Below are positions 718-63,275 of a stretch of DNA of 64,000 nt, in pieces. Position 1 is the first letter of the stretch. Each line of letters opens with the position of its first letter. The notes below the pieces were generated by a model. The model ran no database searches. It was not told the DNA's origin and saw nothing but the letters and a program-made list of their open reading frames with translations. Source of the DNA: Gemmatimonadales bacterium (lineage in GTDB: Bacteria; Gemmatimonadota; Gemmatimonadetes; Gemmatimonadales; GWC2-71-9). The DNA is taken from the NCBI GenBank assembly GCA_050183505.1, contig JBFXBG010000003.1:13823-77822 (forward strand), written 5' to 3'. The position numbers and the translations under genes are program-made.

Positions 718-762
718 CTTCCGTCCGTCCTTCCGTCCTTCCGTCTTTCCGCCTTTCCACCC
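718..762. repeat. tandem 8-mer array CTTCCGTC/TTTCCGCC (complement of GGAAAGAC family), single arm
   Basis: Read directly: cttccgtc-cgtc-cttccgtc-cttccgtc-tttccgcc-tttccacc, upstream of the EamA gene. Confidence 0.8.
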
Positions 763-773
763 AGATTGTCCCC

Positions 774-1625
774 GTGTCCCAGTCGCGCGCGCGCACCCTC
801 GTCCTCACGACCATCACGATGGTCGCCTTCGCGGCCAATTCGGTGCTCACCCGGCTGGCGCTCGGTCCCAGGTCGGTGGACGCCGCGAGCTTCGCCACGA
901 TCCGGCTGGGCTCCGGGGCCGTCACCCTGCTGCTCATCGCCACGGCGAGCCGGACCGCCCGCCCGCCGGAGAGCCGGGCGGGCTGGGTTTCGGCGGCCCT
1001 CCTGTTCAGCTACGCCGCCGCGTTCTCGTTCGCCTATCTCACGCTCGGCACCGGCACCGGGGCCCTGATCCTGTTCGGGGCGGTCCAGGCCACGATGATC
1101 ATCGCCGCCCTGCGGGGAGGTGAACGCCCGCACGCGAGCGAATGGGTCGGTCTCGTGCTCGCGCTGGGCGGGCTCACCGCCCTGGTCGCCCCGGGACTGA
1201 CCGCCCCTGCCCCGATCGGATCGGCCCTCATGGCGGTGGCCGGGATCTCGTGGGGTGTGTATTCCCTGCGCGGGCGGGGCGCGGCCAACCCGCTGCAGGA
1301 CACCACGGCCAACTTCATCCGGGCAGCGCCGATGGCCCTGGTGTTGAGTCTCATTCTGCTGAGCCGGGTTCACCTCACGACCCGCGGGATCATTCTGGCG
1401 GTCTGTTCCGGTGCCGTCGCCTCCGGAATGGGATACGTCGTCTGGTATGCCGCGCTGCGCGGACTCTCGGCGACCCGGGCGGCCATCGTGCAGCTTTCGG
1501 TCCCGGTCCTCGCCGCCCTGGGTGGCGTGCTGTTTCTGGCTGAGACGGTGTCGGTGCGGCTGATCATCTCCGGAGCCCTGATCCTCGGGGGCGTGGCGAT
1601 GGCGGTGGCCGGGCGCGCGAGGTAG
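774..1625 (+). CDS. EamA/DMT-family transporter
   Basis: Polytopic membrane protein with two EamA-like halves (VAFAANSVLTRLAL..., ...ISWGVYSLRGR...YVVWYAALRGLSATRAAIVQLSVPVLAAL). Start uncertain: GTG at 774 or ATG at 819. Confidence 0.8.
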   Translation: MSQSRARTLVLTTITMVAFAANSVLTRLALGPRSVDAASFATIRLGSGAVTLLLIATASRTARPPESRAGWVSAALLFSYAAAFSFAYLTLGTGTGALILFGAVQATMIIAALRGGERPHASEWVGLVLALGGLTALVAPGLTAPAPIGSALMAVAGISWGVYSLRGRGAANPLQDTTANFIRAAPMALVLSLILLSRVHLTTRGIILAVCSGAVASGMGYVVWYAALRGLSATRAAIVQLSVPVLAALGGVLFLAETVSVRLIISGALILGGVAMAVAGRAR

Positions 1626-1680
1626 GCGGGCGGGCCTGAACGTCTCAACCCGCTGAAGATCGCCAAGCCACCTGCCCGTT

Positions 1681-1787
1681 CACCGGTCACCGGTCACCCG
1701 TCTCCCGTCTCCCGTCTCCCGTCTCCCGTCTCCCGTCTCCCTTCTCCCTTCTCCCTTCTCACTTCTCACTCTTTCTACTCTCTCCCC
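1681..1787. repeat. 15-unit phase-preserved heptamer array (CACCGGT x2, CACCCGT, CTCCCGT x5, CTCCCTT x3, CTCACTT, CTCACTC ...), single arm
   Basis: Read directly. Runs without a phase break up to the ATG at 1788. Confidence 0.95.
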
Positions 1788-2342
1788 ATGGCCTTCATCC
1801 CCTACCTCCCGACGGACGCGATTCCCGAAGCCGACCGCGTCCCCGACAACGACCACATCCTGCGGATCCACGGGGTGCATTCGCGCGTCATGCGGCAGCA
1901 CTACGATCTGTATGTCGAGCTGATGCACCGGCCCGGGCCGTTGAGCCGGCTGGAACGGGAACTGGTGGGGGCCGCGGTCTCCCAGGCCAACGCGTGCCAC
2001 TACTGACTGGTCCACCACGGAGCGACGCTCCGGACGCTCCTCCGGGCGAGGGGCACCGAGGAAGACCTGCTGGACGGCCTCATCGGGAACCTGGCGGACG
2101 AGACGCCGCCGGCGGGGTTGAGCCCGCGGGAAACCGCCATTCTGGGTTACGCCCTCAAGCTCACGCGCACGCCGGGACGGATGACGGAAAACGACCTCGT
2201 CCCCTTGCGCCGGGCGGGCCTGGATGACCGTGCCATCCACGACCTGTGCGGGGTGACGGCCTACTTCGCCTTCGTCAATCGCATTGCCGATGGACTGGGC
2301 GTGGAACTGGAGGAGAGGTGGAGCGACGGCGGTGGGCGGTGA
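1788..2342 (+). CDS. AhpD/carboxymuconolactone-decarboxylase-family peroxidase-related protein with in-frame TGA at 2004..2006 (Sec candidate or nonsense)
   Basis: ORFs 1788..2006 and 2118..2342 are in the same frame, and no other stop lies between 2007 and 2117. Read-through gives ...SQANACHY-[TGA]-LVHHGATL...AYFAFVNRIADGLGVELE. This is the CxxC..H core and C-terminal signature of the CMD/AhpD-like family. Confidence 0.6.
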
Positions 2343-2346
2343 GCGT

Positions 2347-5073: not shown

Positions 5074-5296
5074 ACAGCTTGGACGCTCCCAGCCTGGCGT
5101 CCGTTTACTCCGCTGGGGGCAACGGCTTATCCCGCACGTTAGCAGGATGCCGGCCGGGATCCAACCCGGATGGCGGAGGTCGGAATGGTGGCGTATTGTG
5201 CACGGACGGTCAGAGAGTTGTCAGAGTTTCGCCATCCGAGCGGGGGTCGTTCATCATGTCTTCGTGCAGTCCCGCCGCCGCGGGCGCGGATCCGCC

Positions 5297-5878
5297 ATGA
5301 GCCCGCCTCTTCCCGGACAGCCGGGGCTGATGGCGGACATGCGCACGTGGAGCCGGGGCCGCTGGTGGTCCTGGCGCGCGCTGCTGCTCGCCTGGCTGGC
5401 CTGGACCGGCTGGCACTACCTGCGGGACCCGGAGTACGCCAGCGTTTTCCAGGGAATCGATTTCGGGGTCCACGAACTGGGGCACCTGGTCTTCGGCTTC
5501 GGAGGGGAATGGATCGGCGTCGCCGGCGGGAGCCTGGCCCAGGTGCTGCTCCCGCTCGCCGCCGGCGCCCTGTTCTGGTCGCAGCGCGACTACTTCGGCG
5601 CCGCCGTCTGCGGCGCCTGGGAGGCGTTCAGCCTGTTCGAGCTGTCGCGTTACGTGGCCGATGCCCGGGCCCAGGAGCTGGACCTGGTCAGCTTCAGCGA
5701 GACCGCGATCCACGACTGGAACTACCTCCTGTCCAGCGTGGGCCTGCTGCGGCAGGACGTGGCCATCGCCCACGGGATGCGCATCCTGGCGCTGCTCCTG
5801 CTGGCGGGGAGTCTGTGGTGGGGCGGGTGGCTGTGCCGGGAGATGAGGCGTGGAAGGACCGTGAACGGTGAACGGTGA
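5297..5878 (+). CDS. membrane protein with HExxH motif (putative metalloprotease-like)
   Basis: ATG at 5297 within ORF 5147..5878. Several hydrophobic segments and FGVHELGHLVFGF. The C-terminus (GRTVNGER) and the stop codon are encoded by the GTGAACG repeat array. Confidence 0.55.
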   Translation: MSPPLPGQPGLMADMRTWSRGRWWSWRALLLAWLAWTGWHYLRDPEYASVFQGIDFGVHELGHLVFGFGGEWIGVAGGSLAQVLLPLAAGALFWSQRDYFGAAVCGAWEAFSLFELSRYVADARAQELDLVSFSETAIHDWNYLLSSVGLLRQDVAIAHGMRILALLLLAGSLWWGGWLCREMRRGRTVNGER

Positions 5879-5953
5879 ACGGTGAACGGGACCGGGTCGT
5901 CCTCCGAGACATGGATGCTGGGCCCGTTCACTGTTTACCGTTTACCGTTCACG
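5861..5953. repeat. inverted heptamer arrays (GTGAACG)n ... (CGTTTAC/CGTTCAC)n
   Basis: Left arm gtgaacggtgaacggtgaacggtgaacggg, right arm cccgttcactgtttaccgtttaccgttcacgg, spacer about 31 nt. Lies between convergent genes and supplies both stop codons. Confidence 0.9.
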
Positions 5954-7589
5954 GTTCCCCGCTTTCGATCTTCAGCAGCTCCCGGTAGGCCGGCAGCGTC
6001 AGAAACTCCTCGAACTCCTTCGAGGTGATGAGCCGGTCGAAGATCTGCCGCGCCAGGTCGAACCGTCCGCCCCGATAGCGTTCGTCACCCACCAGACCCC
6101 GGATCCGTTCCAGTTCTTCGGCGGTGACGGCGTGATACAGTTCGGGCGTCACCACCCGGCCGTCGTCCAGCGTGGCCCCGTGCCGCACCCATTGCCAGAC
6201 CTGGCTGCGGGAAATCTCGGCGGTGGCCGCGTCTTCCATCAGGTTGAAGATGGGGACGCAGCCGATGCCGTTGAGCCACGACTCCAGGTACAGGAGCCCG
6301 ACGGTGATGTTATGCCGCAGGCCCTCCTCGGTGATCTTTCCTTCCGGCACCGTCAGCAGGTCGTCGGCGGTGACCTTTACGTCTTCCCGCATGACGCCGA
6401 GCTGATTGGGGCCGGGCATGCCGGCATCGAAGACCTTCCGGGCGATCTCGACCAGGGCGGGATGAGCGACCCAGGTTCCGTCGTGCCCGTCTTTCACTTC
6501 CCGCTCCTTGTCGGCGATCACCTTGCCGATGGCGGTGTCGTTGGCCGCCGGGTCGTTCTTGATCGGAATCTGGGCCGCCATGCCTCCCATCGCGTGCGCA
6601 CCCCGGCGGTGGCACGTCTTGATGACCAGCTGGGTATAGGACCGCAGGAAGTGCCGGTCCATGCCCACGGTGCCCCGGTCCGGAAGCGTGAACTGCGGAT
6701 GGTTCCGGAATTTCTTGATGAAGCTGAAGATGTAGTCCCACCGGCCGCAGTTGAGTCCGACGATGTGCTCTTTCAGCTCGAAGAGGATCTCGTCGAGTTC
6801 GAAGGTCGCCAGGATCGTCTCGATCAGGACCGTGGCCCGGATGGTGCCGACGGGCAGCTTGAGGGCGTCCTGGGCCGCGAGGAAGACGTCATTCCACAGG
6901 CGGGCCTCGAGATGGCTCTCCAGCTTGGGCAGGTAGTAGTACGGGCCGGTCCCCCGCGCCAGCAGTTGCCTGACGTTGTGGAAGAAGTAGAGGCCGAAAT
7001 CGAACAGACTGCCTGCGATCGGCTCGCCGTCGATATGCAGGTGTTCCTCGGACAGGTGCCAGCCGCGGGGACGGGCCATCAGCACGGCGACGGTGTCGTT
7101 CAACCGGTAGGATTTCCCTTCAGGCGAGACGAAGTCGATGGTCCCCGCGATGGCATCGCGCAGGTTGATCTGCCCCTGGACCTGGTTGTCCCAGGTCGGG
7201 GCGTTGGCATCCTCGAAATCGGCCATGAAGACGTTGGCGCCGCTGTTGAGCGCGTTGATGACCATCTTCCGGTCGACCGGGCCGGTGATCTCCACCCGCC
7301 GGTCCTGCAGATCGGCCGGCGCGGGCCGGACTTTCCACTCGGCCCGCCGGATGCCCGCCGTCTCGGGCAGGAAGTCGGGCCGCCAGGTTCCGTCGAGCTG
7401 GCGCTGGAGATCGTGCCGGCGGGCAAGCAGCGCGCGGCGGGTGGGTTCGAACCGCCGGTGCAGTGTGGCAAGAAAATGCAGCGCATCGGGTGTCAGAATA
7501 TCCGAGAAACCCGGCTGCAGCGGCCCCAGGATGTCGATGCCGCTCGCGGGTCTGGTCCTGGCTTTGGTTTTCGCTTTGGATGCTGCCAT
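5949..7589 (-). CDS. aceB: malate synthase A
   Basis: Strong family resemblance along the whole length ([61 protein letters not shown]). Start taken at the ATG at 7589 (MAASKAKTK...). Confidence 0.93.
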
Positions 7590-7622: not shown

Positions 7623-7756
7623 GTAAAGTAAACGGTTAACGGTAAACGGTGAACAGCACGGGGCCGCAGGTCGATCGGGATGGCGGGCGGCGGATTCGGG
7701 TTCACCGCTCACCGCGCGCCGTCCACTCCGCGCGGTTGTCGCCCGCCGTTTACTGG
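7623..7756. repeat. inverted heptamer arrays (NAACGGT)n ... degenerate (TTCACCG/CTCACCG)n
   Basis: gtaaagt aaacggt taacggt aaacggt gaacagc, then ttcaccg ctcaccg cgcgccg tccactc ... In the divergent aceB/sodC gap. Confidence 0.7.
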
Positions 7757-8350: not shown

Positions 8351-8440
8351 TGTGAACGGTGAGCCGTAGACGCTGACCGGGCCCGGGCGTTCGGGCCCGG
8401 GGGCGGCCCTCTCTCCATCTCCCGTTCACCGCCACTGCCG
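8351..8440. repeat. inverted degenerate heptamer arrays around a GC palindrome
   Basis: tgtgaac ggtgagc cgtagac gctgacc / cccgggc..gcccggg core / ccctctc tccatct cccgttc accgcca. Downstream of sodC. Confidence 0.7.
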
Positions 8441-10929: not shown

Positions 10930-12468
<1,539 letters not shown>

Positions 12469-14976: not shown

Positions 14977-15701
14977 CCCGTCCACTGATCGGTGTCACGG
15001 GGACGATCCGTCGGTTCGAGTCGGCCGACCGGGCCAGCGTGAACGCGGCGTACCTGCGGGCCCTCGCGGCCGCGGGGGCGAACCCGGTCCTGCTGACCCC
15101 GGTCATCCCCACCAGTGACGCGGGCTCGGTGCTGCAGCGGATGCAGGGCCTGGTCATCACCGGCGGACACGACGTCGACCCGTGCTGGTACAACGCCCGG
15201 CCCTCACCCGCGCTGGGAGCGGTGGATCGGGCCCGGGACGCGTTTGATCTGGCGCTGTTCCGCACCGCCCGTTCACTCGGGCTCCCGGTCCTGGGGATTT
15301 GCCGGGGGTTGCAGGTCATCAACGTGGCCCTGGGCGGCACCCTCTGGCAGGACCTCCCCAGCGAAATGCCGGGGCCGGTCAAGCATGATCCGCCGGATAC
15401 CCCCCGGAACACCCGGGTTCACGGCATCCGGGTGGATCCCGCCAGCCGGCTCGCGGCGGCCCTGGGAAGCACCCGGTTCCGGACCAACTCCTTCCACCAC
15501 CAGGCCGTCCGGGAACTGGCCCCGGGCCTCATGGCCACGGCCTGGGCGGACGATGGTGTCATCGAAGGCGTCGAAGGACCCGCGAGCGACCCCTGGCTGC
15601 TCGCGGTTCAGTGGCATCCGGAAGAGTTCGTGGGGGAGCCGGAGTCGGAGGACCAGAGACTGTTTGTCGCTTTGGTGGAGGCAAGTGAACGAATTGGATG
15701 A
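14973..15701 (+). CDS. class I glutamine amidotransferase, gamma-glutamyl-GABA hydrolase (PuuD/peptidase C26)-like
   Basis: GLVITGGHDVDP, PVLGICRGLQVINVALGG and AVQWHPE motifs. The stop TGA lies in the first GGATGATTGG repeat unit. Confidence 0.85.
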   Translation: MTRPLIGVTGTIRRFESADRASVNAAYLRALAAAGANPVLLTPVIPTSDAGSVLQRMQGLVITGGHDVDPCWYNARPSPALGAVDRARDAFDLALFRTARSLGLPVLGICRGLQVINVALGGTLWQDLPSEMPGPVKHDPPDTPRNTRVHGIRVDPASRLAAALGSTRFRTNSFHHQAVRELAPGLMATAWADDGVIEGVEGPASDPWLLAVQWHPEEFVGEPESEDQRLFVALVEASERIG

Positions 15702-15807
15702 TTGGAGGATTTGTGATTGGATGATTGGGTGTAACCTCTGATACGCTTGAGGGTGACCAACCATCCGGGGCCCGACGGGCCCAATCATCCAATCACAAAT
15801 CATCCAA
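15691..15807. repeat. inverted GGATGATTGG-type arrays
   Basis: Left arm ttggatgattggaggatttgtgattggatgattggg. The reverse complement of the right arm is ttggatgatttgtgattggatgattggg, identical except for one 7-nt unit (TGGAGGA). Confidence 0.9.
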
Positions 15808-27459: not shown

Positions 27460-28278
27460 ATGCCGTCACGATCCCTCCAGGCGCTCGCGCTCGCTCTCTT
27501 TCTTGCTCCACCAGCTCTCGCGGCCCAGCAGCCGCTGGTGCAGCGCGAGCGCGCCGCCTTCGCTCGCTGGCTGCTGGCATCGGCCAATTCACCCTACGCG
27601 GCGATTGCCCTGGCCCGGGTTGGTGACGGCATTGCGCTGGGCCCGGCCGATGCCGATGTCCCGCTGGCGGCCGCCGGTCCCTGGCGGATCGCCGAGGCGC
27701 CGGGCGGCCTGATCCTGGAAGGGCGGTCCCTGCGGCGGACATTGCCGCGCTACCGGCTCACGACGGTTGGAGCCTACTCGTTCTTTCCCAGCGGCGAACG
27801 CGGGCGGACCAAGGTCACCGTATTCGGCCCGGTTCACGACGCGCACGAACCGGTCTATTTCGAATACGACAGCTCATTCGTGTTCATCGGGCCGCTCCTG
27901 CGGGACGATGCACCCGAACCGGTGCGGATCCTGGCGCTGGACGGGCTGGAGGTCGAAGCCACCCGCGTGGGCAGCGTCCTGGTGCCCGACGGGACCGCCG
28001 GCACCCGGCTCCGGGTCTACCGGGTTCCGGATCCCGGCACCGAAGAGTCCGAGCTCACCATCTACTTTCAGGATGCGACCAACGACGCGGGGACCTATCC
28101 GGCCGGCCGTTTCGTGAGCCTGATCCCGCTGCCCGACGGTCGCTACCGACTGGACTTCAACCGGGCCAGGAATCCGTTCTGCGCCTACAGCACAGTGTAT
28201 CCCTGCCCCGCCCCCTGGCCCGGCAACCGGCTCCAGCGGGGGATCGCGGTGGGGGAGAAGTATGAGGAGAAGGGCTGA
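27460..28278 (+). CDS. DUF1684 domain protein
   Basis: C-terminus FNRARNPFCAYSTVYPCPAPWPGNRL is the DUF1684 signature. Signal peptide MPSRSLQALALALFLAPPALAA. The stop TGA lies in the first CTGAGGA unit. Confidence 0.8.
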   Translation: MPSRSLQALALALFLAPPALAAQQPLVQRERAAFARWLLASANSPYAAIALARVGDGIALGPADADVPLAAAGPWRIAEAPGGLILEGRSLRRTLPRYRLTTVGAYSFFPSGERGRTKVTVFGPVHDAHEPVYFEYDSSFVFIGPLLRDDAPEPVRILALDGLEVEATRVGSVLVPDGTAGTRLRVYRVPDPGTEESELTIYFQDATNDAGTYPAGRFVSLIPLPDGRYRLDFNRARNPFCAYSTVYPCPAPWPGNRLQRGIAVGEKYEEKG

Positions 28279-28364
28279 GGACTGAGGACTGAGGACTGAG
28301 GACTGAGGACTGAGGGCTGAGGGCTGAGGACTGAGAGGTGAGACGTGAGAGGCAAGACGTGAGA
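28274..28364. repeat. 13-unit heptamer array (GCTGAGG, ACTGAGG x5, GCTGAGG x2, ACTGAGA, GGTGAGA, CGTGAGA, GGCAAGA, CGTGAGA), single arm
   Basis: Read directly. Spans from the DUF1684 stop to the TlpA-like start. Confidence 0.95.
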
Positions 28365-29576: not shown

Positions 29577-29715
29577 AAGACTGGATGATTGGGGATTGGA
29601 TGATTGGGGGGTGGTTTGAGGATCACCGGGCCTCGCCGGCCGCTGCCGAAGCCCTGGGCCACGGCCAATCATCCAATCTTCAAATCATCCAGTCCTCCAA
29701 TCCCCAATCATCCCA
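29577..29715. repeat. GATTGG-family hairpin element, copy A (arms plus conserved core)
   Basis: Left arm ctggatgattggggattggatgattgggggg. Core tttgaggatcaccgggcc...gccgctgccg.agccc. Right arm ccaatcatccaatcttcaaatcatccagtcctccaatccccaatcatcc. Confidence 0.9.
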
Positions 29716-34107: not shown

Positions 34108-34138
34108 GGCGGAAAGACGGAAAGACGGAAAGACTCCG
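34108..34138. repeat. tandem 8-mer array GGAAAGAC x3, single arm
   Basis: gggc ggaaagac ggaaagac ggaaagac tccgggg, directly after the E2 stop. Confidence 0.85.
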
Positions 34139-35562: not shown

Positions 35563-35738
35563 GGATTGGAGGATTGGTGTTGGTGATTGGAGATTGGATG
35601 ATTGGTGATTGGATGATTGGGGGTGTTTTGAGGATCACCGGGCCCTGCCAGCCGCTGCCGTAGCCCAGGGGCGCGGCCAATCATCCAATCATCCAATCCC
35701 CAATCATCCAATCCTTCAATCCTCCAATCCTCCCTCTC
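35562..35738. repeat. GATTGG-family hairpin element, copy B
   Basis: Left arm has about 9 GGNGATT units, a core about 89 percent identical to copy A, and a right arm of CCAATCATCC/CCAATCC units. Fills the lpdA-stop to next-ATG gap exactly. Confidence 0.9.
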
Positions 35739-38308: not shown

Positions 38309-38385
38309 GGAGATCAGATGATCGGAAACGGAGGGGGGTGCGCGCACCGCCCCCTGCCGCACCCCCGGGACAATCATCCAATCCC
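38309..38385. repeat. degenerate GATTGG-type element around a GC palindrome
   Basis: ggagatcagatgatcgg ... ggggggtgcg/cgcaccgccccc ... caatcatccaatcccc. Lies between convergent genes. Confidence 0.55.
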
Positions 38386-38411
38386 CGACCATTCACTCAC
38401 TCGATAACGCC

Positions 38412-39770: not shown

Positions 39771-39951
39771 GAGAGAAGTGAGAGGTGAGAAGTGAGAAGT
39801 GAGAGGGATACCGGGTATTGATCGCAGGTATGGAATTCTGCCATCTCACGCATACCACGCATACAAGGGGAATCTACCCCGTCCGGCCCGGGTGGCCATA
39901 CCCCCGGGCCTCCTAACTTCTCGCTTCTCGCTTCCTCACTTGCCCTCCCCC
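39771..39951. repeat. inverted heptamer arrays (GAGAGAA GTGAGAG GTGAGAA GTGAGAA GTGAGAG) ... (ACTTCTC GCTTCTC GCTTCCT CACTTGC CCTCCCC)
   Basis: Read directly. About 100-nt spacer. In the divergent gap between the M20 peptidase and the TPR gene. Confidence 0.85.
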
Positions 39952-41102: not shown

Positions 41103-41615
41103 ATGATCGAAGTCACCCTCTCCGACATCACTCTCCAGCCCCTCGATGCGATCGTCAACGCGGCCAACACCACGCTGCTTGGCGGCGGCGGGGTTGATGG
41201 CGCGATTCACCGCGCGGCCGGCCCCGAACTGCTTGAGGAGTGCCGCGGGCTCGGCGGCTGCCCGACCGGCGAAGCCCGCATCACCCGGGGCTACCGGCTT
41301 CCGGCCCGCTATGTGATCCACACCGTCGGGCCGGTCTGGAACGGCGGCCGGCGCGGCGAGGCCGGGTTGCTGGCCTCCTGCTACCGCAACTCCCTCGCTC
41401 TCGCCATCGGACACGGCCTCCGCTCCATCGCGTTCCCTTCCATCAGCACCGGCGCGTACCGCTACCCGCTGGAGCAGGCCGTGGAGATCGCGGTTGGCAC
41501 GGTGAACGATATGCTCCGAAGCCCGGGGACGATCGAACTGGTGCGGTTTGTGTGCTTCGCGGAGCGGGATCGGGAAGTGTATGAGAGGGAGTTGAGGGGT
41601 CGGGGACGGCCATGA
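41103..41615 (+). CDS. macro-domain O-acetyl-ADP-ribose deacetylase (YmdB-like)
   Basis: [26 protein letters not shown] and [15 protein letters not shown]. Alternative GTG start at 41094. Confidence 0.88.
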
Positions 41616-41638
41616 CGGCCGGGGCGGCCACGACGGCC
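41603..41638. repeat. tandem 9-mer array NNGACGGCC x4
   Basis: gggacggcc atgacggcc ggggcggcc acgacggcc. Contains the macro-domain gene stop. Confidence 0.75.
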
Positions 41639-41721
41639 GGGATCCCCATTCCAACCTTCCGGCCGGACTCGCTATCTCACCCGTATCCGCGATTCCCTCA
41701 ACGCGTTACGGAGATGATCCC

Positions 41722-42771
41722 ATGAAGACCAGTTTTCTCGGGGCAGCGTTGCTGCTGGCCGTGGCCGTTCCCTCGCTCCAGGCCCAGGAGTCCTACACGG
41801 TCTCCGGCAGCCGGGTCGCGATCTACAACCTGGCCGGTCAGGTCACGGTCGAGCCCGGCAGCGGCAGCGGCGTGCAGGTCATGGTGACGACCGGGGGCGG
41901 CGACCGGGCCCGGCTCAAGGTGGAGACCGGTTCGATCGGAGACCGGGAGACGCTCCGGGTGATCTACCCGGATGACCGGATCGTGTACAACGCCCGCCGC
42001 TGTGAAGGCCGGTCCGACATGTACGTCCGGGACGACGGCACCTTCGGCAACGGCTGGGACCGGGGCCGGGGCCGGGGCCATCGGGTGACCGTCGCCTGCA
42101 GCGGCGGCGGCACTGAAGCCTGGGCCGATCTCCGGATCCGGGTACCGTCCGGCCAGCGGGTGTCGATCAACCTGGGTGTGGGCCGGATCGAGGCGTCCAA
42201 TCTGAATGGCGACATCGACCTCGACACCGCTTCGGGCGACATCACGGCGAGATCGGTCCGCGGCAGCCTGAGCCTGGACACCGGATCAGGTAACGCGGAG
42301 GCCAGCGACGTCGACGGCGACCTCAGCATCGACACCGGCTCGGGAGACGTCCGGGTGACCGGCATGAAGAACGGCGAGCTCAGCATCGACACCGGCTCCG
42401 GCAGCGTCACCGCGTCGGCAATCGAAGCCACCGAAGTCAGCGTCGACACCGGCTCGGGAGACGTCAACCTGGACGGGGTGAGCGCGCGATCGATCTCGCT
42501 CGACACCGGCAGCGGTGAGATCACGGTCGGCCTCCGGAGCGTCGCCGTCGACCTCAACGCCGATACCGGCTCCGGCGACGTCACCCTCTTCGTCCCCGAC
42601 GGTTTCGGGGCCGAACTCAGGATCGAGACCTCCAGCGGGGACATCGACACCGAGGTCCCCATTCAGTTGCGGCGGAAGGACCGGGACGAACTCAGCGGCC
42701 GGATCGGCGACGGCCGCGGGCGGGTGGAGATCGAGACCGGGAGCGGGGACGTGAAGATCAGAAAGCAGTGA
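41722..42771 (+). CDS. DUF4097 beta-strand-repeat (adhesin-like) protein
   Basis: Signal peptide, then about 8 repeats of the DTGSGD(V/I) unit. The stop TGA lies in the first GTGAGCA unit. Confidence 0.8.
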   Translation: MKTSFLGAALLLAVAVPSLQAQESYTVSGSRVAIYNLAGQVTVEPGSGSGVQVMVTTGGGDRARLKVETGSIGDRETLRVIYPDDRIVYNARRCEGRSDMYVRDDGTFGNGWDRGRGRGHRVTVACSGGGTEAWADLRIRVPSGQRVSINLGVGRIEASNLNGDIDLDTASGDITARSVRGSLSLDTGSGNAEASDVDGDLSIDTGSGDVRVTGMKNGELSIDTGSGSVTASAIEATEVSVDTGSGDVNLDGVSARSISLDTGSGEITVGLRSVAVDLNADTGSGDVTLFVPDGFGAELRIETSSGDIDTEVPIQLRRKDRDELSGRIGDGRGRVEIETGSGDVKIRKQ

Positions 42772-42925
42772 GCAGTAAGAAGTGAGAAGTAAGAAGGGGG
42801 TGGCAGTCCGCTCAGGCGGTATCTGCCGCCCCCTTCTCACTTCTCACTTCTCACTGCTCACTGCTCCCTGCTCACTTCTCACTGCTCACTGCTCACCGCT
42901 CCCATCCTCTCTCCCATCTTCTCAA
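42761..42925. repeat. inverted heptamer arrays (GTGAGCA GTAAGAA GTGAGAA GTAAGAA) ... 13 x (CTCACTT/CTCACTG/...) with nested GC hairpin
   Basis: Left arm 5 units, right arm about 13 units. Centre gggggtggcagtccgctcaggcggtatctgccgccccc is a nested stem-loop. Confidence 0.92.
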
Positions 42926-47323: not shown

Positions 47324-47381
47324 CGCGGACGGCGCTGAGGCAGGCAGATCGCGCTCTCCTCCGCGCCTCCGCGTCTCCGCG
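47324..47381. repeat. degenerate inverted purine/pyrimidine heptamer-like arms
   Basis: gcggacggcgctgaggcaggcaga versus tctcctccgcgcctccgcgtctccgc, between hisIE and dnaE. Weak. Confidence 0.35.
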
Positions 47382-51870: not shown

Positions 51871-51940
51871 GAGAAGTGAGAAGTGAGAAGTGAGAAGGGA
51901 GAAGGGAGAAGGGAGAAGTGAGAAGTGAGAAGGAGGGGGG
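51869..51940. repeat. 10-unit heptamer array (GAGAGAA, GTGAGAA x3, GGGAGAA x3, GTGAGAA x2, GGAGGGG)
   Basis: Read directly. Starts in the accA stop codon. A degenerate complementary arm lies at about 52048..52091, abutting the PSP1 ATG. Confidence 0.92.
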
Positions 51941-53129: not shown

Positions 53130-53142
53130 AACCACGACCGAC

Positions 53143-53212
53143 GAGGGCCGAGGACTGAGCCGCCACGCGTAACGAGTGAAGGACGGAGGTGGGGACTCGG
53201 TCCTCAGCCCTC
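53143..53212. repeat. short inverted CTGAGGA-family hairpin
   Basis: gagggccgaggactgag ... ctcggtcctcagccctc (reverse complement gagggctgaggaccgag). Between PSP1 and metG. Confidence 0.75.
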
Positions 53213-53242
53213 GGTCCCGGGTCGTTCTTTCTCCCGAGAACC

Positions 53243-54769: not shown

Positions 54770-54800
54770 CAGTCAAGTACTTGGACGTGTCCTTCCGGCC

Positions 54801-55890: not shown

Positions 55891-55985
55891 ACGGCGGTGA
55901 GCGGGAAGCAGTGAACGGTGAACGGGGCCGGTGTCCACATCCCGATGGACAAACCGGCCCCGTTTACCGTTCACCGTTCACTGTG
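55887..55985. repeat. GTGAACG-family hairpin element with GGGGCCGG/GTCCA inner clamp
   Basis: ctgaacg..cagtgaa cggtgaa cgggg ccgg t gtcca catcccga tggac aaa ccgg ccccg tttaccg ttcaccg ttcactg. Confidence 0.9.
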
Positions 55986-55987
55986 CT

Positions 55988-58082: not shown

Positions 58083-58134
58083 AGCTTTGGCGGTCCCCGC
58101 GGTCCAGTGTCGCTTTCCCGATCCAGGAATCGTC

Positions 58135-58881: not shown

Positions 58882-58888
58882 TGGAAGG

Positions 58889-58945
58889 GCTGAGGACTGA
58901 GGACTGAGGACTGAGGGCTGAGCGGCTGAGGACTGAGGGCTGAGC
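58889..58945. repeat. 8-unit heptamer array (GCTGAGG, ACTGAGG x3, GCTGAGC, GCTGAGG, ACTGAGG, GCTGAGC)
   Basis: Read directly. One 1-nt phase slip at 58924. Confidence 0.9.
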
Positions 58946-58979
58946 GGCTTTCCGAAGTCTGGCCCCTCCCTTCCCACCG

Positions 58980-59678
58980 ATGTACCATTCCTGTATGCCC
59001 AACTACCGCGTACTGGTTCCCGCCTTTGTCCTGGTTGCCGGGGGGGCGTTCCTGCTGGGCCGCCGGGCCACGCCGGGGACATCGGTTGCCGCATCGCCCG
59101 CGGCGGTGGCTCCGGCCGCAAAGGACTCGATCGACTACATGATCAACCAGCGCTCCCTGGGCTCGCCCGAAGCGCCGGTGACCGTATTCGAGATGTCCGA
59201 TTTCCAGTGTCCCTACTGCCGGCGGCACGCGCTCGAGACCTTCCCCGAGTTGAAGCAGCGGTTCATCGACACCGGCAAGGTGCAGTGGATCTTCATCAAC
59301 TTCCCGCTCACCCAGCTCCATCCCAATGCGGCGGCGGCCGCGGAGTTCGGGCTCTGCTCCGCCAAGGCGGACCGGTTCTGGCCCATCCACGACCTGCTCT
59401 ACCGCAACCAGGACACCTGGGCGCCCATGGAAGACCCGGCCCCGTACTTCATGGGGCTGGCCGACTCCATCGGCCTCCCGCGGAAGGCCATCGCGCCGTG
59501 CCTCGAGTCGGGGGAGATGCGTATCCTGGTCCAGTACGATGCCGAGGGAGCCTCCCGCGCGGGCGCCCACAGCACGCCCAGTTTCTTCATCGAGGGCGGC
59601 ATGCTCCGCGGTGCCGTACCGGCCGAGCCGTTCGGGGCGATACTGGATTCGATCTACGCGGCGAAGGCTGGGGGTTAG
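58980..59678 (+). CDS. DsbA-family thioredoxin-fold protein
   Basis: VTVFEMSDFQCPYCRRH and STPSFFIEG. Alternative start at ATG 58995. Confidence 0.85.
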   Translation: MYHSCMPNYRVLVPAFVLVAGGAFLLGRRATPGTSVAASPAAVAPAAKDSIDYMINQRSLGSPEAPVTVFEMSDFQCPYCRRHALETFPELKQRFIDTGKVQWIFINFPLTQLHPNAAAAAEFGLCSAKADRFWPIHDLLYRNQDTWAPMEDPAPYFMGLADSIGLPRKAIAPCLESGEMRILVQYDAEGASRAGAHSTPSFFIEGGMLRGAVPAEPFGAILDSIYAAKAGG

Positions 59679-59913
59679 GGGAGAGGTTGAGAGGTTGAAG
59701 AGTCGAGAAGGCGAGAAGTCGAGAAGTCGAGAAGGCCAGAAGTCGAGTGGTCACGGAATCCCGGTCCGGCTCCTTCACTCGCAAGAGGGAGCCGCTGACC
59801 GTCGGACTGCTCGACTCCTCGACCTCTCGACTTCTCGACCTCTCGACTTCACTACCTCCCGACTTCTCGACTTCTCTGCCTCCCGACTTCTCGACCTCTC
59901 GACCTCTCGACTC
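59678..59913. repeat. inverted 8-mer arrays (GAAGTCGA-type x8) ... (CTTCTCGA/CCTCTCGA-type x13)
   Basis: gaggttga gaggttga agagtcga gaaggcga gaagtcga gaagtcga ..., then tcctcgac ctctcgac ttctcgac ... Lies between convergent dsbA-like and CPBP genes. Confidence 0.92.
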
Positions 59914-60637
59914 ATATGGCCAAAAACACATCATACAGCGCATGAGTCCAGGCCGTGATGCCGAAGCCCCGGAGCAGGTAGAGTCCGCTGAACATCACGC
60001 CGGCCACGGCCCGGAAGGTGAATGAGGCCGCTTCCAGCCGGTCGCCGTAGGGGCCGATGTAGTGGAACGCGGAAAAGATCAGCGCTCCCACCAGGGTGGC
60101 AAACACCCCCGCGGCAACCTCCGACCATCCCATCCGCCGTCCCAGCCAGGCCAGTCCCGAGACCAGCAGGACCCGGAACAGCAGTTCCTCGTACAGGCCG
60201 GCCCCGAGCGAGATCATGAGCTGGGTGGGCAGGTCGAAGGATGCCAGGCCGCCGACCGCCAGCGCGATCCCGCCGTTCAGGATGAGCCCGGTCAGGATGC
60301 TGGCCACGCTGCCGAACAGCAGGGCATACACCACCGATTCCGCCGCCATACCGAGGAAGATCCGGCCCTGGAGCTTCCCGCCGGCCCGGCGCCAGTCGCG
60401 CCAGACCAGGGCGGCGCCGGTCCCCACCAGCAGGAAGCCGAACACAATCAGTCCATTCCGCCCGCCCAGCGCCACGAATACGCTCTTGAGCATCACGTCC
60501 GCCCCGTTTCGAACCCCGGCGAACGCGTCGTGGGACAGGGCAAACGCCAGCAGCTCGTAGAGCACCAGCAACGGAAAGACGAAAAGCAGGCTGTAGCGCG
60601 GGGCGCGTGAAGTGCGCCAGTAGGCGGAGGTAAACAT
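59912..60637 (-). CDS. CPBP-family intramembrane glutamic endopeptidase (CAAX protease-like)
   Basis: ATG at 60637. GLYEELLFRVLL...FSAFHY...THALYD motifs. Confidence 0.8.
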   Translation of the reverse strand: MFTSAYWRTSRAPRYSLLFVFPLLVLYELLAFALSHDAFAGVRNGADVMLKSVFVALGGRNGLIVFGFLLVGTGAALVWRDWRRAGGKLQGRIFLGMAAESVVYALLFGSVASILTGLILNGGIALAVGGLASFDLPTQLMISLGAGLYEELLFRVLLVSGLAWLGRRMGWSEVAAGVFATLVGALIFSAFHYIGPYGDRLEAASFTFRAVAGVMFSGLYLLRGFGITAWTHALYDVFLAI

Positions 60638-60655
60638 GGTAAGGGAAAATAGCGA

Positions 60656-60697
60656 GGGACGGCCGAGGCCGAGACGGCCAGGACGGCCGGGACGGCC
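60656..60697. repeat. tandem 9-mer array NNGACGGCC
   Basis: gggacggcc gaggcc gagacggcc aggacggcc gggacggcc, in the divergent CPBP/waaA gap. Confidence 0.7.
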
Positions 60698-60736
60698 ACC
60701 TTGCCAGCCGCCGCCTCTCCCCTGACATTCCCGCCC

Positions 60737-62035
60737 ATGCCCCGCACGTCCCTGCTGTACCGGATCGGCCTGGGGATGAGCCTGCCGCTTGTCCCCGTGG
60801 CCGGTCTGTTCGACGCCAAGATCAGGCGGAGCCACCCGGCCCGCCGTCGCGCGCTGCGGGAGTTCCAGCAGTGGGGTGCCACCAGCCGGGACCCGGCCAG
60901 GCCGCTCATCTGGTTCCACGCCCCGTCGGTAGGGGAGGGCCTGCAGGCTCGTCCGGTACTGGCCCGGCTCCGGGCCCGGCACCCGGACTGGCAGTTCGCC
61001 TACACCTTTTTCAGCCCGTCCGCCGAGGGGTTTGCCCGGAAGTCCGGGGCCGACGTGTCGGGCTACATCCCGTACGACACCGCCCGGATGGCCAAACTGC
61101 TGCTGGATGCGCTCCGGCCGTCGGCGCTTGTTTTCGCCAAGCTGGACCTGTGGCCGGAACTGGCCACCCGGGCGGCGGCCCGCGGTATCCCCCCGGGACT
61201 CATCGCCGGAACGGTCCGTCCCCGCAGCAGCCGGCTCCGATGGCCGGCGCGGCAGCTGCTCCGCCCGGGCTACGCTGCCCTGTCCCTCGCCGGTGCCATC
61301 TCGGACGCCGATCGGGCCCGGCTGAGCGAACTCGGCTGCCGGCCGGAGACGCTTCGTGTCCTGGGCGACCCGCGCTTCGACAGCGTGATAGACGTGGTCC
61401 GCGCCGCCCCCGAGGACGATCCCCTGAAGGCATTCGGCCACGGTGCCCCGACGATGGTCGCCGGTTCAACCTGGCCGGGGGATGAGGCCGTCCTGCTGGA
61501 AGCGTTCGCCCGGCTGCATGTGCGCCGGCCCACGGCGCGACTGATCCTGGTGCCGCACGAACCGACCCCGGCCCATCTGGCGCAGATCGACCGCCTGGCG
61601 GCCCGGTTCGGCCTGTCGGCCCCGGTGCGGTCCAGTGCGGCCGGGGGCCCCGTTCCCCTGCTGGTGGTGGATCAGATCGGGATACTGGCCCGCCTGTACG
61701 GAGCCGGCACCATGGCCTTCGTGGGCGGCGGGTTCCACGGCCGGGGCCTGCATTCGGTGCTGGAACCGGCGGCCTGGGGCATCCCCAGCGTGTTCGGGCC
61801 CCGCTGGGAAGAGAGCCGGGACGCGTCGCTGCTGCTGGAGGCCGGCGGAGCCGAAGCGCTGGCCGAACTCGGCGCGGTCGAGGCGGCCGGTGTGCTGGAG
61901 AATCTCTGGGAGGACTGGATCGTCAACGAGATCCGGCGGAAGGCGCAGGGCCGCAAGGCGTACGGGGTGGTGCAGCAGGGCCTGGGTGCGGCGGACCGCA
62001 CGGCCGATGCGGTGGAGACGCTGGTGATCGGGTGA
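60737..62035 (+). CDS. waaA: 3-deoxy-D-manno-octulosonic acid (Kdo) transferase
   Basis: IWFHAPSVGEG...FSPSAE...GGGFHGRGLHSVLEPAAWG. The stop TGA lies in the first repeat unit. Confidence 0.88.
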   Translation: MPRTSLLYRIGLGMSLPLVPVAGLFDAKIRRSHPARRRALREFQQWGATSRDPARPLIWFHAPSVGEGLQARPVLARLRARHPDWQFAYTFFSPSAEGFARKSGADVSGYIPYDTARMAKLLLDALRPSALVFAKLDLWPELATRAAARGIPPGLIAGTVRPRSSRLRWPARQLLRPGYAALSLAGAISDADRARLSELGCRPETLRVLGDPRFDSVIDVVRAAPEDDPLKAFGHGAPTMVAGSTWPGDEAVLLEAFARLHVRRPTARLILVPHEPTPAHLAQIDRLAARFGLSAPVRSSAAGGPVPLLVVDQIGILARLYGAGTMAFVGGGFHGRGLHSVLEPAAWGIPSVFGPRWEESRDASLLLEAGGAEALAELGAVEAAGVLENLWEDWIVNEIRRKAQGRKAYGVVQQGLGAADRTADAVETLVIG

Positions 62036-62117
62036 GCAGTAAACGGTGCACGGTAAACGGGGCCGGTCTGTCCATTGAGATGAGGACGCCGGCCCCGTTT
62101 ACCGTCACCGCTCAACG
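62031..62117. repeat. GTGAACG-family hairpin element with GGGGCCGG/GTCC inner clamp
   Basis: ggtgagc agtaaac ggtgcac ggtaaac gggg ccgg tct gtcc attgagatga ggac g ccgg cccc gtttacc gtcaccg. Confidence 0.9.
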
Positions 62118-62125
62118 TCTGCAGC

Positions 62126-62506
62126 CTACTCCGCCACCACGCCCTCGACCGTCACCGACCGCGGCACCACCAGCCCGGCGGTGAGGACGGTCACCAGCAG
62201 ATCCGTCCATCGGGTGCGGGCCCTGATCCTGATATCGGAGATCGACTTCCCGCCGGCGAGCTCGGTGGCGAGGACCTTCTGGATCGACGGCCGTTTGAGC
62301 TTGAAGAGCCCCCACAGCCCGAAGACCGCGTGGGTGGTGACTTCGAAGCGCGCTCCGGCCGGATGCTGGCCGGCTTGAGTGGACAGCGTTGCGGGAACGC
62401 CCAGGGTCGTGGCGTCGTAGGTCACCGAACAGCCGGCGGCGGTCACCAGCACCGCCGCCAGCAGTCCCGCACGGAGAAGACCTGGAATTCTGAATGGAGC
62501 GCGCAT
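62126..62506 (-). CDS. small lipoprotein (Bor/Iss-like, weak)
   Basis: ATG at 62506. Lipobox VTAAGCS. Overall layout is reminiscent of Bor-family lipoproteins. Confidence 0.5.
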   Translation of the reverse strand: MRAPFRIPGLLRAGLLAAVLVTAAGCSVTYDATTLGVPATLSTQAGQHPAGARFEVTTHAVFGLWGLFKLKRPSIQKVLATELAGGKSISDIRIRARTRWTDLLVTVLTAGLVVPRSVTVEGVVAE

Positions 62507-62522
62507 GCAGGGTTCGCCGGGC

Positions 62523-63161
62523 TCAGAGCCCGGGGACCTTGATGGCATAGTGCACCCCGACGCCGATCACGGCCGGGCTCGCCCCGTCCACGGTCACCCG
62601 GTCGTAGGCCACGCTGAATCCCAGCCCGCTCAGCAGGTTGAAATCGATCCCGCCGCTGATGCCGAAGTTCGAATCGGTGTTGCTGCTTCCGTTGGAGATC
62701 CGGACCACATCCAGCCGGGGCGCGATCCAGGGATGGATGGCCACGACGGTGGTCGGGATCGTGGCGGTGAGGCCGACGCCCACGGGGAAACGCCACATGG
62801 TGAAGGTGCCCAGATCGGTATGGGCCGCGCCGCCCTGCAGGGTGATCGCGAACGGGATCAGCGGCCCGCCGAAGACCTTGAAGTTCACCGTCCCGCCGAA
62901 CGAGGTATGGGAGCTGCCGTTCTTCGGGTCGTAGTTCGACACGGTGGCGCTCACGCCGAGCGGTCCGAGGCCAAGCTCACCGGTGAGGCCGTAGGCCGTG
63001 CCCTTCCCCGCATCGGTGTTGGGAAACCCGGCTTCGGCCTGCAGCTGGATGCCGGTACCGACACCGTTGTTGTAGACCGGCAGTCCGGGGTTCTGCGCGG
63101 CCGCGACGGCCGTCACACCCAGCGACATCGCCAACGCGAGGAGCAGTGGTCTGCGACGCAT
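62523..63161 (-). CDS. outer-membrane beta-barrel protein
   Basis: ATG at 63161 with GGAGG upstream. Signal peptide MRRRPLLLALAMSLGVTAVAAAQ. Alternating Gly/aromatic beta-strand pattern. Confidence 0.7.
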   Translation of the reverse strand: MRRRPLLLALAMSLGVTAVAAAQNPGLPVYNNGVGTGIQLQAEAGFPNTDAGKGTAYGLTGELGLGPLGVSATVSNYDPKNGSSHTSFGGTVNFKVFGGPLIPFAITLQGGAAHTDLGTFTMWRFPVGVGLTATIPTTVVAIHPWIAPRLDVVRISNGSSNTDSNFGISGGIDFNLLSGLGFSVAYDRVTVDGASPAVIGVGVHYAIKVPGL

Positions 63162-63240
63162 GGATCCTCCAGATGAGGTAATGAAGCAAGCGGCTGGCAA
63201 GCTAAGGGAGCGGCGGGACAGGGTCAACGAGGGGAAGAGG

Positions 63241-63275
63241 GGTGCCGGGGTGCCGGGTGCCCGGCCGCCGGCACC
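63241..63275. terminator. GGTGCCGG 8-mer repeats forming a GC hairpin (terminator candidate for the minus-strand barrel gene)
   Basis: ggtgccgg ggtgccgg gtgcccgg ccg ccggcacc, 6 nt beyond the stop at 63282..63284. No U-tract. Confidence 0.45.

Follow-up and report, generated by a model that had tools for sequence, protein, structure and literature searches.

What fills the gaps between genes in a genome where short units of 7 or 8 nt stand head to tail at one gene boundary after another, and in places face an array of the reverse-complementary unit? The question is raised by a 64,000-nt stretch (hereafter the window) of contig JBFXBG010000003.1, assembly GCA_050183505.1, from a soil Gemmatimonadales bacterium. 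The kind of element and the rule by which it is placed are already published, and the window represents a new phylum for a known class. The arrays are very probably slippage-generated simple sequences of the class found in Xanthomonas and Nostoc; that the paired forms function as hairpins at transcript 3′ ends is a possibility that we hold more tentatively. For the combined reading, slippage arrays of a known class with paired forms acting as 3′-end hairpins, we put the probability at roughly 50%.

The gene map, made with a caller based on third-position GC content (GC3) and then mended with the annotation of a matching metagenome-assembled genome (MAG), leaves about 10% of the window (6372 bases) non-coding. 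Tandem Repeats Finder called 27 arrays of period 7 or 8 in the window, with 3–13.5 copies each and 9–13.5 units in the longest; inverted pairs enter some of the array counts twice, once per arm. Although so little of the window is non-coding, 24 of the 27 lie mostly there, and arrays of these periods cover 1028 of the 6372 non-coding bases, about a sixth. Block-shuffled versions of the window (n = 20) contained 0–3 arrays each, with a mean of ~0.5, compared with 22 intergenic arrays observed. Arrays of period 6 or 9 lie mostly within genes, and the exclusion of 7- and 8-nt units from genes is what frame conservation predicts, because neither number is a multiple of 3. At least six unrelated unit families, 8-mers included, coexist in the window. 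A preliminary description of this DNA had proposed a family of intergenic elements at no fewer than 20 loci in 64 kb; we count about 22, and the enrichment just given bears out their intergenic character. Head-to-tail arrays were recovered at nearly all of the positions that it listed (718, 1681, 5861, 7623, 15691, 28274, 29577, 34111, 35562, 39771, 41603, 42761, 51869, 55887, 58889, 59678, 60656, 62031 and 63241), whereas 22091 has only 2 units and 8351, 38309 and 53143 have about three degenerate units each. The 9-nt and GC-rich 8-nt arrays that it included (41603, 60656 and 63241) are genuine repeats but less certainly part of the same phenomenon; for the 9-nt arrays, this is because such arrays also occur inside genes (33105–33237).

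Repeats of this kind could in principle be produced by faulty assembly or by chimerism, and the contig of one relative (relatives are designated here by L numbers; this one is L059) does end in a palindrome that runs back into a gene end, probably through fold-back at the contig end. The preliminary description had itself named absence from independent long-read assemblies as grounds for refutation. Two other assemblies of the organism do contain the arrays: window positions 27776–34527 and 53070–61557 match two contigs of MAG GCA_050248135.1 at 99.97–99.99% identity, positions 55492–57475 match a Logan contig of SRR27751815 at 100%, and the arrays are identical in all of these, with 0 gaps over 7 array loci. 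Like arrays are present in megabase-scale contigs of relatives from MFD MAGs, which are probably long-read (L009, L012, L025, L027 and L045), and in the isolate genome of Rubrivirga litoralis. The artefact explanation, to which we give almost no weight, is effectively refuted. Arrays of this sort are nevertheless a hazard for metagenome assembly, as sites of contig breaks and fold-back artefacts.

The placement of the arrays follows the strand of the neighbouring gene. Among 60 strand-biased intergenic arrays, those adjacent to a stop codon (array start within −26 to +25 nt of it) have the purine strand as the sense strand in 32 cases and the pyrimidine strand in 1. For the 30 nt ahead of start codons, the count is 12 arrays pyrimidine-rich in the sense direction to 4 purine-rich; these distances are approximate because gene starts come from a crude caller. 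The stop codon itself lies inside the array at 5878, 15701, 28278, 42771, 42879, 51870, 55890 and 62035. The inverted pairs obey a corresponding polarity, which the preliminary description had pointed out and which persists in a larger sample: the purine-rich arm is 5′ in 14 of 14 strand-biased pairs (binomial p = 1.2e-4), 6 of them from the window and 8 from relatives. All 6 pairs strictly detected in the window (12 by eye) are purine-first, as are 8 of the 9 pairs in relatives, the ninth being neutral, and pyrimidine-first pairs were not found; one relatives' pair, that of L059, has a doubtful right arm that is perhaps partly a fold-back assembly artefact. Stop triplets (TGA, TAA or TAG) occur in 33 of 57 purine-strand units, against 24.9 expected from permuted units, and in 2 of 57 on the pyrimidine strand. 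With a period of 7 or 8 and a stop in the unit, all three frames are closed within ~21–24 nt.

Arrays of GGGAATC in Xanthomonas campestris/citri and of GGGGA(C/T)T in Nostoc PCC 7120, with 2–26 copies and ~90% of them intergenic, are the subject of Rehm et al. (2015; PMC4692102). In those arrays, the purine/G-rich strand is the coding strand when the array lies 0–50 bp past a stop codon or overlaps it, and the non-coding strand just upstream of open reading frames; 70–75 convergent inverted pairs per Xanthomonas genome are potential stem-loops, the repeats are rarer between divergent genes, and no tie to mobile elements or phase-variable genes was seen (PMC4692102). Positions are kept between related species while length and sequence vary, and no function was found. 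The polarity reported above is therefore a rediscovery. Like the Xanthomonas and Nostoc heptamers, the window arrays are tandem repeats above chance level, biased towards intergenic DNA, overlapping stop codons, subject to the strand rule, partly organized as inverted pairs and found at orthologous junctions that are also occupied in relatives. They differ in having at least six unit families, 8-mers among them, where the published arrays have a single consensus unit, and in belonging to the phylum Gemmatimonadota; hairpins account for about half of the loci, and arm covariation and encroachment on protein C termini are documented in the window. G-quadruplex potential, the focus of the earlier work, was considered here as a common property and dismissed, as one array qualifies, that at 1693–1760 (minus strand GGGAGAC; G3+ x4 pattern). 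Neither GGGAATC nor GGGGAYT occurs in tandem in the window, and with a single quadruplex-capable array the window stands outside that sequence family and inside the wider class. In the isolate Rubrivirga litoralis F394 (L076), a (CGGGCAG)x9 array at 12493–12556 starts 10 nt past the dnaE stop codon, and positions 22250–22340 hold a GGTAC.../CCGTACC inverted pair, so that the placement rule also extends outside Gemmatimonadota, to a cultured strain that is usable for experiments on it. The rule is thus seen in Gemmatimonadales, Xanthomonas and Nostoc and, for a single array and a single inverted pair, in Rubrivirga, and it holds without quadruplex potential; as at least six unrelated units of this kind obey it, it depends on purine/pyrimidine asymmetry or on stop codons, and not on G-quadruplexes.

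Other described repeats are more distant. The short tandemly repeated repetitive (STRR) sequences of heterocystous cyanobacteria (Calothrix/Nostoc), with units CCCCAGT, TTGGTCA and CAACAGT, are likewise intergenic tandem heptamers with several unit families per genome, but they belong to another phylum, hairpin pairing is not a defining feature of theirs, and tandem dimers of the three units are absent from both strands of the window. The preliminary description had taken STRR sequences as the closest analogue, a place that belongs to the Xanthomonas/Nostoc heptamers. The TAACTGA repeats of marine Beggiatoaceae, some Cyanobacteria and Bacteroidetes have stops in all frames in the forward orientation and overlap gene ends by no more than ~18 nt (MacGregor 2015; PMC4679880). 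They resemble the window arrays as intergenic heptamers with all-frame stops and a scattered phylogenetic distribution, but lie mostly just upstream of start codons, in 2–6 copies of one unit, and almost never form inverted pairs; TAACTGA does not occur in tandem in the window. According to PMC4679880 and PMC4692102, the survey of long simple sequence repeats by Mrazek et al. (2007) covers units of 5–11 nt, of which heptanucleotides are commonest, with a sporadic phylogeny, exclusion of non-multiple-of-3 units from genes and slippage proposed as the origin. Sporadic distribution, heptamer preference, gene exclusion and a proposed slippage origin are, on those summaries, common to that class and the window. 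PMC4679880 names the ten most repeat-rich genomes of that survey, none of them from Gemmatimonadota, and our literature search found no paper on such repeats in this phylum.

We next consider the paired elements. Nine of them (5858, 15685, 29575, 35542, 39750, 42755, 55880, 59675 and 62030) fold far better than shuffled sequences, with z from −4 to −12.8. Mononucleotide shuffles were used first and key elements were refolded with dinucleotide shuffles (n = 200), of which 0 of 200 were as good in the strong elements so tested; hairpin energies are −54 to −150 kcal/mol. The element at 53125 is moderate (z −2.5), and those at 8345 (z −0.2) and 38302 (z −1.0) are at chance level. The statement that a reverse-complementary arm follows at most loci was thus too strong, since ~10 significant hairpins among ~22 loci are about half, with solo arrays at about 10–12. 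The paired elements are long imperfect palindromes of 70–230 nt, with stems of 30–85 bp and arms of unequal copy number (for example, 5.9 versus 13.5 and 4.3 versus 9.4). Their distribution is uneven: strong hairpins stand at 6 of 10 convergent junctions, compared with 4 of 52 others (Fisher p = 5.5e-4, odds ratio 18). The other convergent junctions have GC stem-loops (10829 and 22689), a degenerate remnant (38302) or almost no gap (2342/2347). Moreover, the two arms vary together. In an alignment of seven GTGAAnG-family hairpins from three genomes, a small sample that includes paralogues, pairing extends to 89.9% of cells, and both sides have changed in 8 of 20 pairs; the covariation score is 0.352 compared with 0.193 for shuffles and was reached by 0 of 500 of them, and slid controls are 36–54% paired. 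The window has C as the variable base, L045 has A and L027 has G, each variant being present at more than one locus per genome. The arms stay complementary while the unit drifts, which requires either selection for pairing or copying from arm to arm.

Comparison with relatives indicates how such elements come and go. The closest matches to the DnaE of the window (47421–50903) are Gemmatimonadales MAGs with no more than 80% identity, gene order in the dnaE neighbourhood is kept among the relatives, and these were sampled as stretches of 5–23 kb surrounding that one gene. Per 100 kb, the window has 34 intergenic arrays of period 7/8, compared with 9.3 for 27 loci with 74–80% DnaE identity (14 of the 27 having at least one array), 0.9 at 65–71% identity and 1.7 at 52–62%. 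Unit sequences vary from species to species; two families, GTGAAnG and GTGAGnn, are found again in species with 75–80% DnaE identity. At the junction of accA with the PSP1-domain gene downstream, ~25 relatives have abutting genes, typically with a TGATG stop/start, and the window alone has a 134-nt insert that opens with (GAGAAGT)x9 at the stop codon; in some distant relatives accA ends in GAGAAGTGAG, a natural 7-nt slippage seed. At the convergent M23 peptidase/LemA junction, the window, L027 and L045 have GTGAAnG hairpins around a GGGGCC-type core, the GGGGCCGG core at 55891 being common to the window and the orthologous L027 hairpin; L009 has GGGGCAGC arms, L013 a 12-unit CTGCTCA array and L007 a compact GC stem-loop flanked by runs of A and T, and L006, L020 and L030 have gaps of 17–28 nt with no element. 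The thioredoxin/Rce1 junction has the same spread among relatives, namely other arrays, non-array palindromes, GC stem-loops or nothing. Gene ends are involved as well: the Rce1-like C terminus is 2–4 residues shorter in the window than in 7 of 7 relatives compared, and array units supply the coding sequence for the aminopeptidase tail AVSSEQ*, in place of a variable tail. The gradient of density with distance (34, 9.3 and 1–2 per 100 kb) and the array formed in place at accA agree with the earlier suggestion of a lineage-bound repeat system growing by slippage.

These comparisons show, or strongly indicate, that the arrays appear and change at gene edges by replication slippage in place, gaining and losing units, and that they persist only outside coding sequence, since 7 and 8 are not multiples of 3. 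The arrays press on the first dispensable base of the upstream gene, in some cases supplying its stop codon and last few codons, and the paired elements probably grew from ordinary GC stem-loops at gene ends. An alternative is that the elements are functionless, a neutral or slightly harmful by-product of slippage in a lineage whose replication or repair is permissive. Purifying selection alone, against frameshifts in genes, open frames leaving genes and promoter disruption, would then set placement and polarity, and a hairpin would result where an older stem already had complementary seeds for slippage in its two arms. The turnover is indeed fast, with nothing at orthologous junctions in some relatives; solo arrays have been inserted into formerly coupled gene pairs, arm copy numbers are unequal, RNA folding is without strand bias, units differ among species, and Rehm et al. 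saw no regulatory effect of the Xanthomonas repeats (PMC4692102). Against it stand the arm covariation above all 500 shuffles, for which selection for pairing or arm-to-arm copying is needed, and the 18-fold enrichment (as an odds ratio) of hairpins at convergent ends. The 32:1 polarity holds for units that lack a stop triplet too. As a seed for the polarity, the purine/pyrimidine asymmetry of gene flanks was also tried, and it has the right direction but is small (purine fraction 0.50–0.57 after stops and 0.44–0.47 before starts), too weak to seed a polarity of 100%. We regard the by-product explanation as somewhat unlikely; were it correct, the window would be a clear example of mutation pressure shaping intergenic DNA.

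The recurrence of units at separate loci raises a further alternative, in which the paired elements are non-autonomous mobile elements with inverted ends that happen to consist of tandem arrays, comparable to MITEs, the miniature inverted-repeat transposable elements, or to REPINs built from repetitive extragenic palindromic (REP) sequences, spread by a transposase encoded elsewhere or by recombination, with slippage altering arm length later. Unit families are shared at 3–5 loci in 64 kb. The spacers of 29582–29713 and 35564–35733 are ~88% identical, these two elements being paralogous, and 55895 and 62039 share a AACGGGGCCGG core; such recurring units, together with the shared spacer and core, are the best evidence for spread between loci. 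In addition, the presence of a genome-specific GTGAAnG variant at more than one locus resembles concerted evolution. REP sequences, bacterial interspersed mosaic elements, REPINs and MITEs are also dispersed intergenic palindromes at gene ends, in genome-specific families, and can stabilise or terminate 3′ ends. REP sequences are imperfect palindromes of 20–40 nt, frequently arranged as inverted doublets. Yet REP and MITE copies are near-identical, of fixed length and without tandem short units, whereas the window copies differ in number and in sequence, and their arms are arrays of variable length. Target-site duplications, expected of MITEs, are lacking in the 12-nt flanks of the nine strong elements, and neither a transposase nor a Y1/RAYT domain was found among the window proteins scanned or in the Pfam annotations of the MAG contigs covering the remaining genes. 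The accA array arose where the related terminal sequence exists in some relatives, the M23/LemA hairpin is orthologous in three genomes, and the spacer motif shared by 29582 and 35564 is present in no relative locus. Mobility is, in our judgement, distinctly improbable as the explanation of the paired elements.

The reading that we prefer adds a function to local slippage. Two observations, the enrichment at convergent ends and the presence of stem-loops at these sites in relatives, point to bidirectional hairpins at transcript 3′ ends. They are not classical terminators, because they are without a U-tract and because solo arrays lie within operons; the preliminary description was right in both respects, that the elements are not simply terminators and that no U-tracts follow them. 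Reading of the sequence found no T-runs after the elements, and hairpin-plus-T-run terminators in the window are not above chance (11 found, 9.5 expected), with a single weak match (53212) in an element; Rfam 15 gave 0 matches at the gathering score over the whole window. That terminators can act in both directions between convergent genes is an established idea (for example, bioRxiv 10.1101/2022.10.23.513370). Bidirectional intrinsic terminators and the window elements alike place a strong hairpin between convergent gene ends, and compact GC stem-loops occupy these sites in relatives (L007 with A and T runs), but the window elements have no U- or A-tract, their stems of 30–85 bp far exceed what is needed, and some are at tandem or divergent junctions. 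The 29582 and 35564 hairpins bracket the lipA-E1alpha-E1beta-E2-E3 operon, in which an internal junction has only a solo array.

We propose that the paired elements may act as bidirectional 3′-end hairpins without a U-tract, in termination, in protection from 3′ exonucleases or in both. Pyrimidine-RNA:purine-DNA is the weakest class of hybrid. Owing to the purine-first polarity, a hybrid of this class would lie behind the finished hairpin and could stand in for the U-tract in both directions. The polarity may have a second basis, in that a purine-rich unit containing T has a stop triplet (TGA, TAA or TAG) and would close all three frames within ~21–24 nt, so that gain or loss of units beside a gene would never lengthen its protein. 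Solo arrays in operons probably have no function themselves and arise as by-products.

Several observations weigh against this proposal. At tandem junctions, sense and antisense RNA fold equally well, so that selection for one of the two transcripts is not apparent. The same convergent junctions hold gaps of 10–30 nt without a hairpin in several relatives, and the structure is therefore dispensable. The strong palindrome at 39773–39945 lies between divergent genes, where a terminator makes no sense, and solo arrays occur inside operons. The enrichment at convergent ends could simply mean that gaps free of promoters tolerate junk. The possible roles that the preliminary description had named (3′-end formation, mRNA stabilisation or insulation) are argued here from position. 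With regard to origin, the presence of one unit family at 3–5 loci per genome and the spacers or cores shared by two pairs of elements imply that pure local slippage is insufficient. With regard to polarity, the stop-less units GAAGTCGA, GGAAAGAC, GGAAGGAC and GGGGCAGC follow the rule and also abut stop codons, so that frame closure cannot be the whole reason; stop-containing units make up 23 of 32 stop-adjacent arrays and 13 of 28 others (p = 0.065), a trend only.

A more ambitious version of the 3′-end proposal would make the elements a general, undescribed mechanism of transcript ending, in which high-GC bacteria would use slippage-grown hairpins in place of the canonical hairpin followed by a U-tract. 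The weak RNA:DNA hybrid would come from the pyrimidine-rich 3′ arm, and termination would owe its robustness in either direction to the many registers in which the arms can pair. Stops in all frames of the 5′ arm would make ribosomes park at the hairpin base or leave the transcript there. An active process, template switching between arms or selection, would maintain arm complementarity, and the elements would fix the exact ends of neighbouring proteins. Taken as a whole, this version appears to us quite unlikely.

The strict periodicity of the units would also be expected if the arrays were periodic protein-binding sites controlling translation or termination at gene boundaries, read by a candidate ring- or filament-forming regulator that binds RNA or DNA and recognizes U-R-R every 7–8 nt; HutP, which reads UAG triplets with 4-nt spacers, would be an analogue, and a G-quadruplex or i-motif, as proposed for Xanthomonas, an alternative. 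Many units do share a TGA/TAA/TAG core with a 4–5 nt spacer, the GTGAAnG and GTGAGnn families recur between species despite the divergence noted above, and the arrays lie exactly at stop and start codons. A common reader is difficult to reconcile with at least six unrelated unit families in one genome, ~40% of units lacking a U-R-R triplet, copy numbers that span 3 to 14 and quadruplex potential in one array only, and no candidate protein was identified. Shine-Dalgarno-like motifs in the purine units, considered as ribosome parking sites, are not enriched (22 observed, 27.4 expected) and were set aside. We consider binding sites a very unlikely basis for the arrays.

Heptamer arrays are the commonest long simple-sequence repeats of bacteria. 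What is new here is that orthologous comparisons show the birth of an array at a stop codon, the replacement of stem-loops, arm covariation and the trimming of C termini, in a genome that has about a sixth of its non-coding DNA as such arrays. Also new are the phylum and the finding that the placement rule has no need of G-quadruplexes. Should the paired elements be bidirectional terminators independent of a U-tract, terminator prediction in high-GC genomes would need revision. The individual elements are collected in Table 1.

Table 1. Paired elements, hairpin candidates and solo arrays of the window (z, fold compared with shuffled sequences).
Feature	Position	Strand	Repeat units	Fold	Context
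Paired	5861..5961		(GTGAACG)x4.1, 34-nt spacer, (CCGTTCA)x5.4	-76.3 kcal/mol RNA, z -9.3, 0/200 shuffles as good	Convergent genes; left array covers last 18 nt of upstream gene, whose stop codon is the third TGA
Degenerate	8351..8437		GTGAACG-like units flanking a GC stem-loop	z -0.2, chance	Upstream of cydA
Paired	15693..15807		GGATGATT-type 8-mers x4.6 + CCAATCAT x3.5	z -5.45	Convergent genes; Peptidase_C26 gene stop TGA inside a unit
Paired	29582..29713		TGGATGAT x3.4 + CCAATCAT x6.2	z -5.0	Upstream of lipA / 2-oxoacid dehydrogenase operon
Paired	35564..35733		GATTGGAT x7.8 + CCAATCAT x7.2	z -8.3	From +1 of E3 (lpd) stop to 5 nt before next ATG
Degenerate	38309..38400		GATGAT / CAATCATCCAATC remnants	z -1.0, chance	Convergent junction
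Paired	39773..39945		(GAGAAGT)x4.6; CTTCTCG units	z -4.0	Divergent gap; (GAGAAGT) array adjoins ATG of minus-strand M20 peptidase gene and is pyrimidine-rich in its sense; CTTCTCG units upstream of TPR gene promoter region
Paired	42759..42903		GCAGTGA/GAAGTGA x4.3 + CTCACTG x9.4	z -12.8	Convergent genes; right array is last 6-7 codons + stop of minus-strand aminopeptidase gene
Moderate hairpin	53143..53226		Three CCGAGGR/CTGAG units + complement	z -2.5, 3/200 shuffles as good	PSP1-domain gene / metG
Paired	55895..55981		GTGAACG units around GGGGCCGG core stem	z -8.6	Convergent M23 peptidase / LemA genes; M23 stop TGA in a unit; orthologous site has GTGAAGG hairpin (L027) or GTGAAAG hairpin (L045)
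Paired, largest	59681..59912		GAGGTTGA/GAAGTCGA 8-mers, ~8 units, vs GACTTCTC x13.5	DNA z -7.35; RNA z -10.4	Convergent genes; right arm ends at TGA of Rce1-like gene
Paired	62039..62105		GTAAACG/GTGCACG units; AACGGGGCCGG core in common with 55895-55981	z -7.4	Convergent genes
Solo	713..755	-	(TCCTTCCG)x4.6, plus-strand letters		18 nt upstream of EamA gene start; pyrimidine-rich in EamA sense
Solo	1676..1767	-	CCGGTCA x3, then (GTCTCCC)x9.7, plus-strand letters		27 nt upstream of an ATG
Solo	7628..7654	+	(GTAAACG)x3.9		Divergent gap, malate synthase / Cu/Zn-SOD genes
Solo	28271..28364	+	(CTGAGGA)x9.3 decaying to GTGAGAC		Starts in DUF1684 stop codon; occupies entire 80-nt gap
Solo	34110..34134	+	(CGGAAAGA)x3.1		2 nt past E2 stop codon, within dehydrogenase operon
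9-nt array, membership uncertain	41601..41641	+	(GACGGCCNN)		Across Macro-domain gene stop codon
Solo, short	47358..47381	-	(CCTCCGCG)x3		Upstream of dnaE
Solo	51871..51932	+	(GAGAAGT)x8.9		Starts at accA stop codon; within 134-nt insertion
Solo	58886..58949	+	(CTGAGGA/CTGAGGG)x8.3		4 nt past a stop codon
9-nt array, membership uncertain	60656..60698	+	(GACGGCCRG)		Divergent gap
GC-rich 8-nt array, membership uncertain	63239..63271	+	(GGGGTGCC)x3		Within ordinary GC stem-loop at gene end

Further observations concern the elements and their counterparts in relatives. A transcript starting past the first spacer of 29582–29713 would have CCAAUCAU repeats at its 5′ end and complementary GAUUGGAU at its 3′ end, making 5′–3′ pairing possible. 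Non-array palindromes of ~110–130 nt (GCTGTCATTGCGAGG...CCTCGCAATGACAG) with a REP- or MITE-like look stand at convergent junctions in L009 (21840–21972) and L017 (~5230–5370). In L059 (DASSMN010000015.1), the palindrome at 6795–7004 reaches past the GGAAGGAC arrays and takes in the stop codon and final codons of the M23 peptidase gene, with ACGGACTAGAGGAAGGCGG at both of its ends, right at the contig end; it is probably a fold-back assembly artefact set off by the inverted arrays. Two coding repeats should be distinguished from the elements of the table. The 9-nt array (GACGGCCAA)x14.8 at 33105–33237 is the Ala/Thr/Lys-rich lipoyl-linker of the E2 acyltransferase (TAKAATTATTAKAA), and its unit resembles the intergenic 9-mers at 41601 and 60656; a 57-nt repeat x2.7 at 42313–42466, inside the DUF4097 'toastrack' gene, is unrelated to the intergenic arrays.

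Many start codons of the window (1788, 22245, 35739, 36920, 53243, 58980 and 60737) are preceded by C/T-rich leaders without a Shine-Dalgarno-like sequence, and the purine fraction at −10 to −1 of starts is 0.44–0.47 in the window and in the closest clade. Other genes have clear GGAG/AAGGA boxes (5949–7589, 10930–12468 and 22748–22960). A TAcATT/TAtATT box lies 7–10 nt upstream of the ATG of the TPR-repeat gene (window 39960–39995) and is conserved at orthologous sites in L005, L009, L010, L020, L030, L047, L054 and L075; its position suggests a −10 element beside the start codon, and the mRNA would then be leaderless or nearly so. A CTAGCCAGCG motif is conserved farther upstream of the TPR gene in the clade with 65–71% DnaE identity.

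Exact-protein look-ups for further assemblies of the organism gave no match, and the matches of a metagenome scan were restricted to relatives at no more than 59% protein identity. Across ~15 kb, the sole differences between the window and MAG GCA_050248135.1 are at 53128, 53134, 57463 and 32734. At 53128, the stop codon TAG of the PSP1 gene reads TCG in the MAG, at a site less than 65 nt from the MAG contig end; at 32734, a 1-bp indel falls within the E1-beta coding sequence and is therefore a frameshift error in one of the two assemblies. On the minus strand at 57273–58082, what the GC3 caller left as a 693-nt gap is a 269-aa gene in the MAG annotation, and positions 57283–57445 hold GC-rich coding repeats of the proline/glycine type with periods of 3–42.

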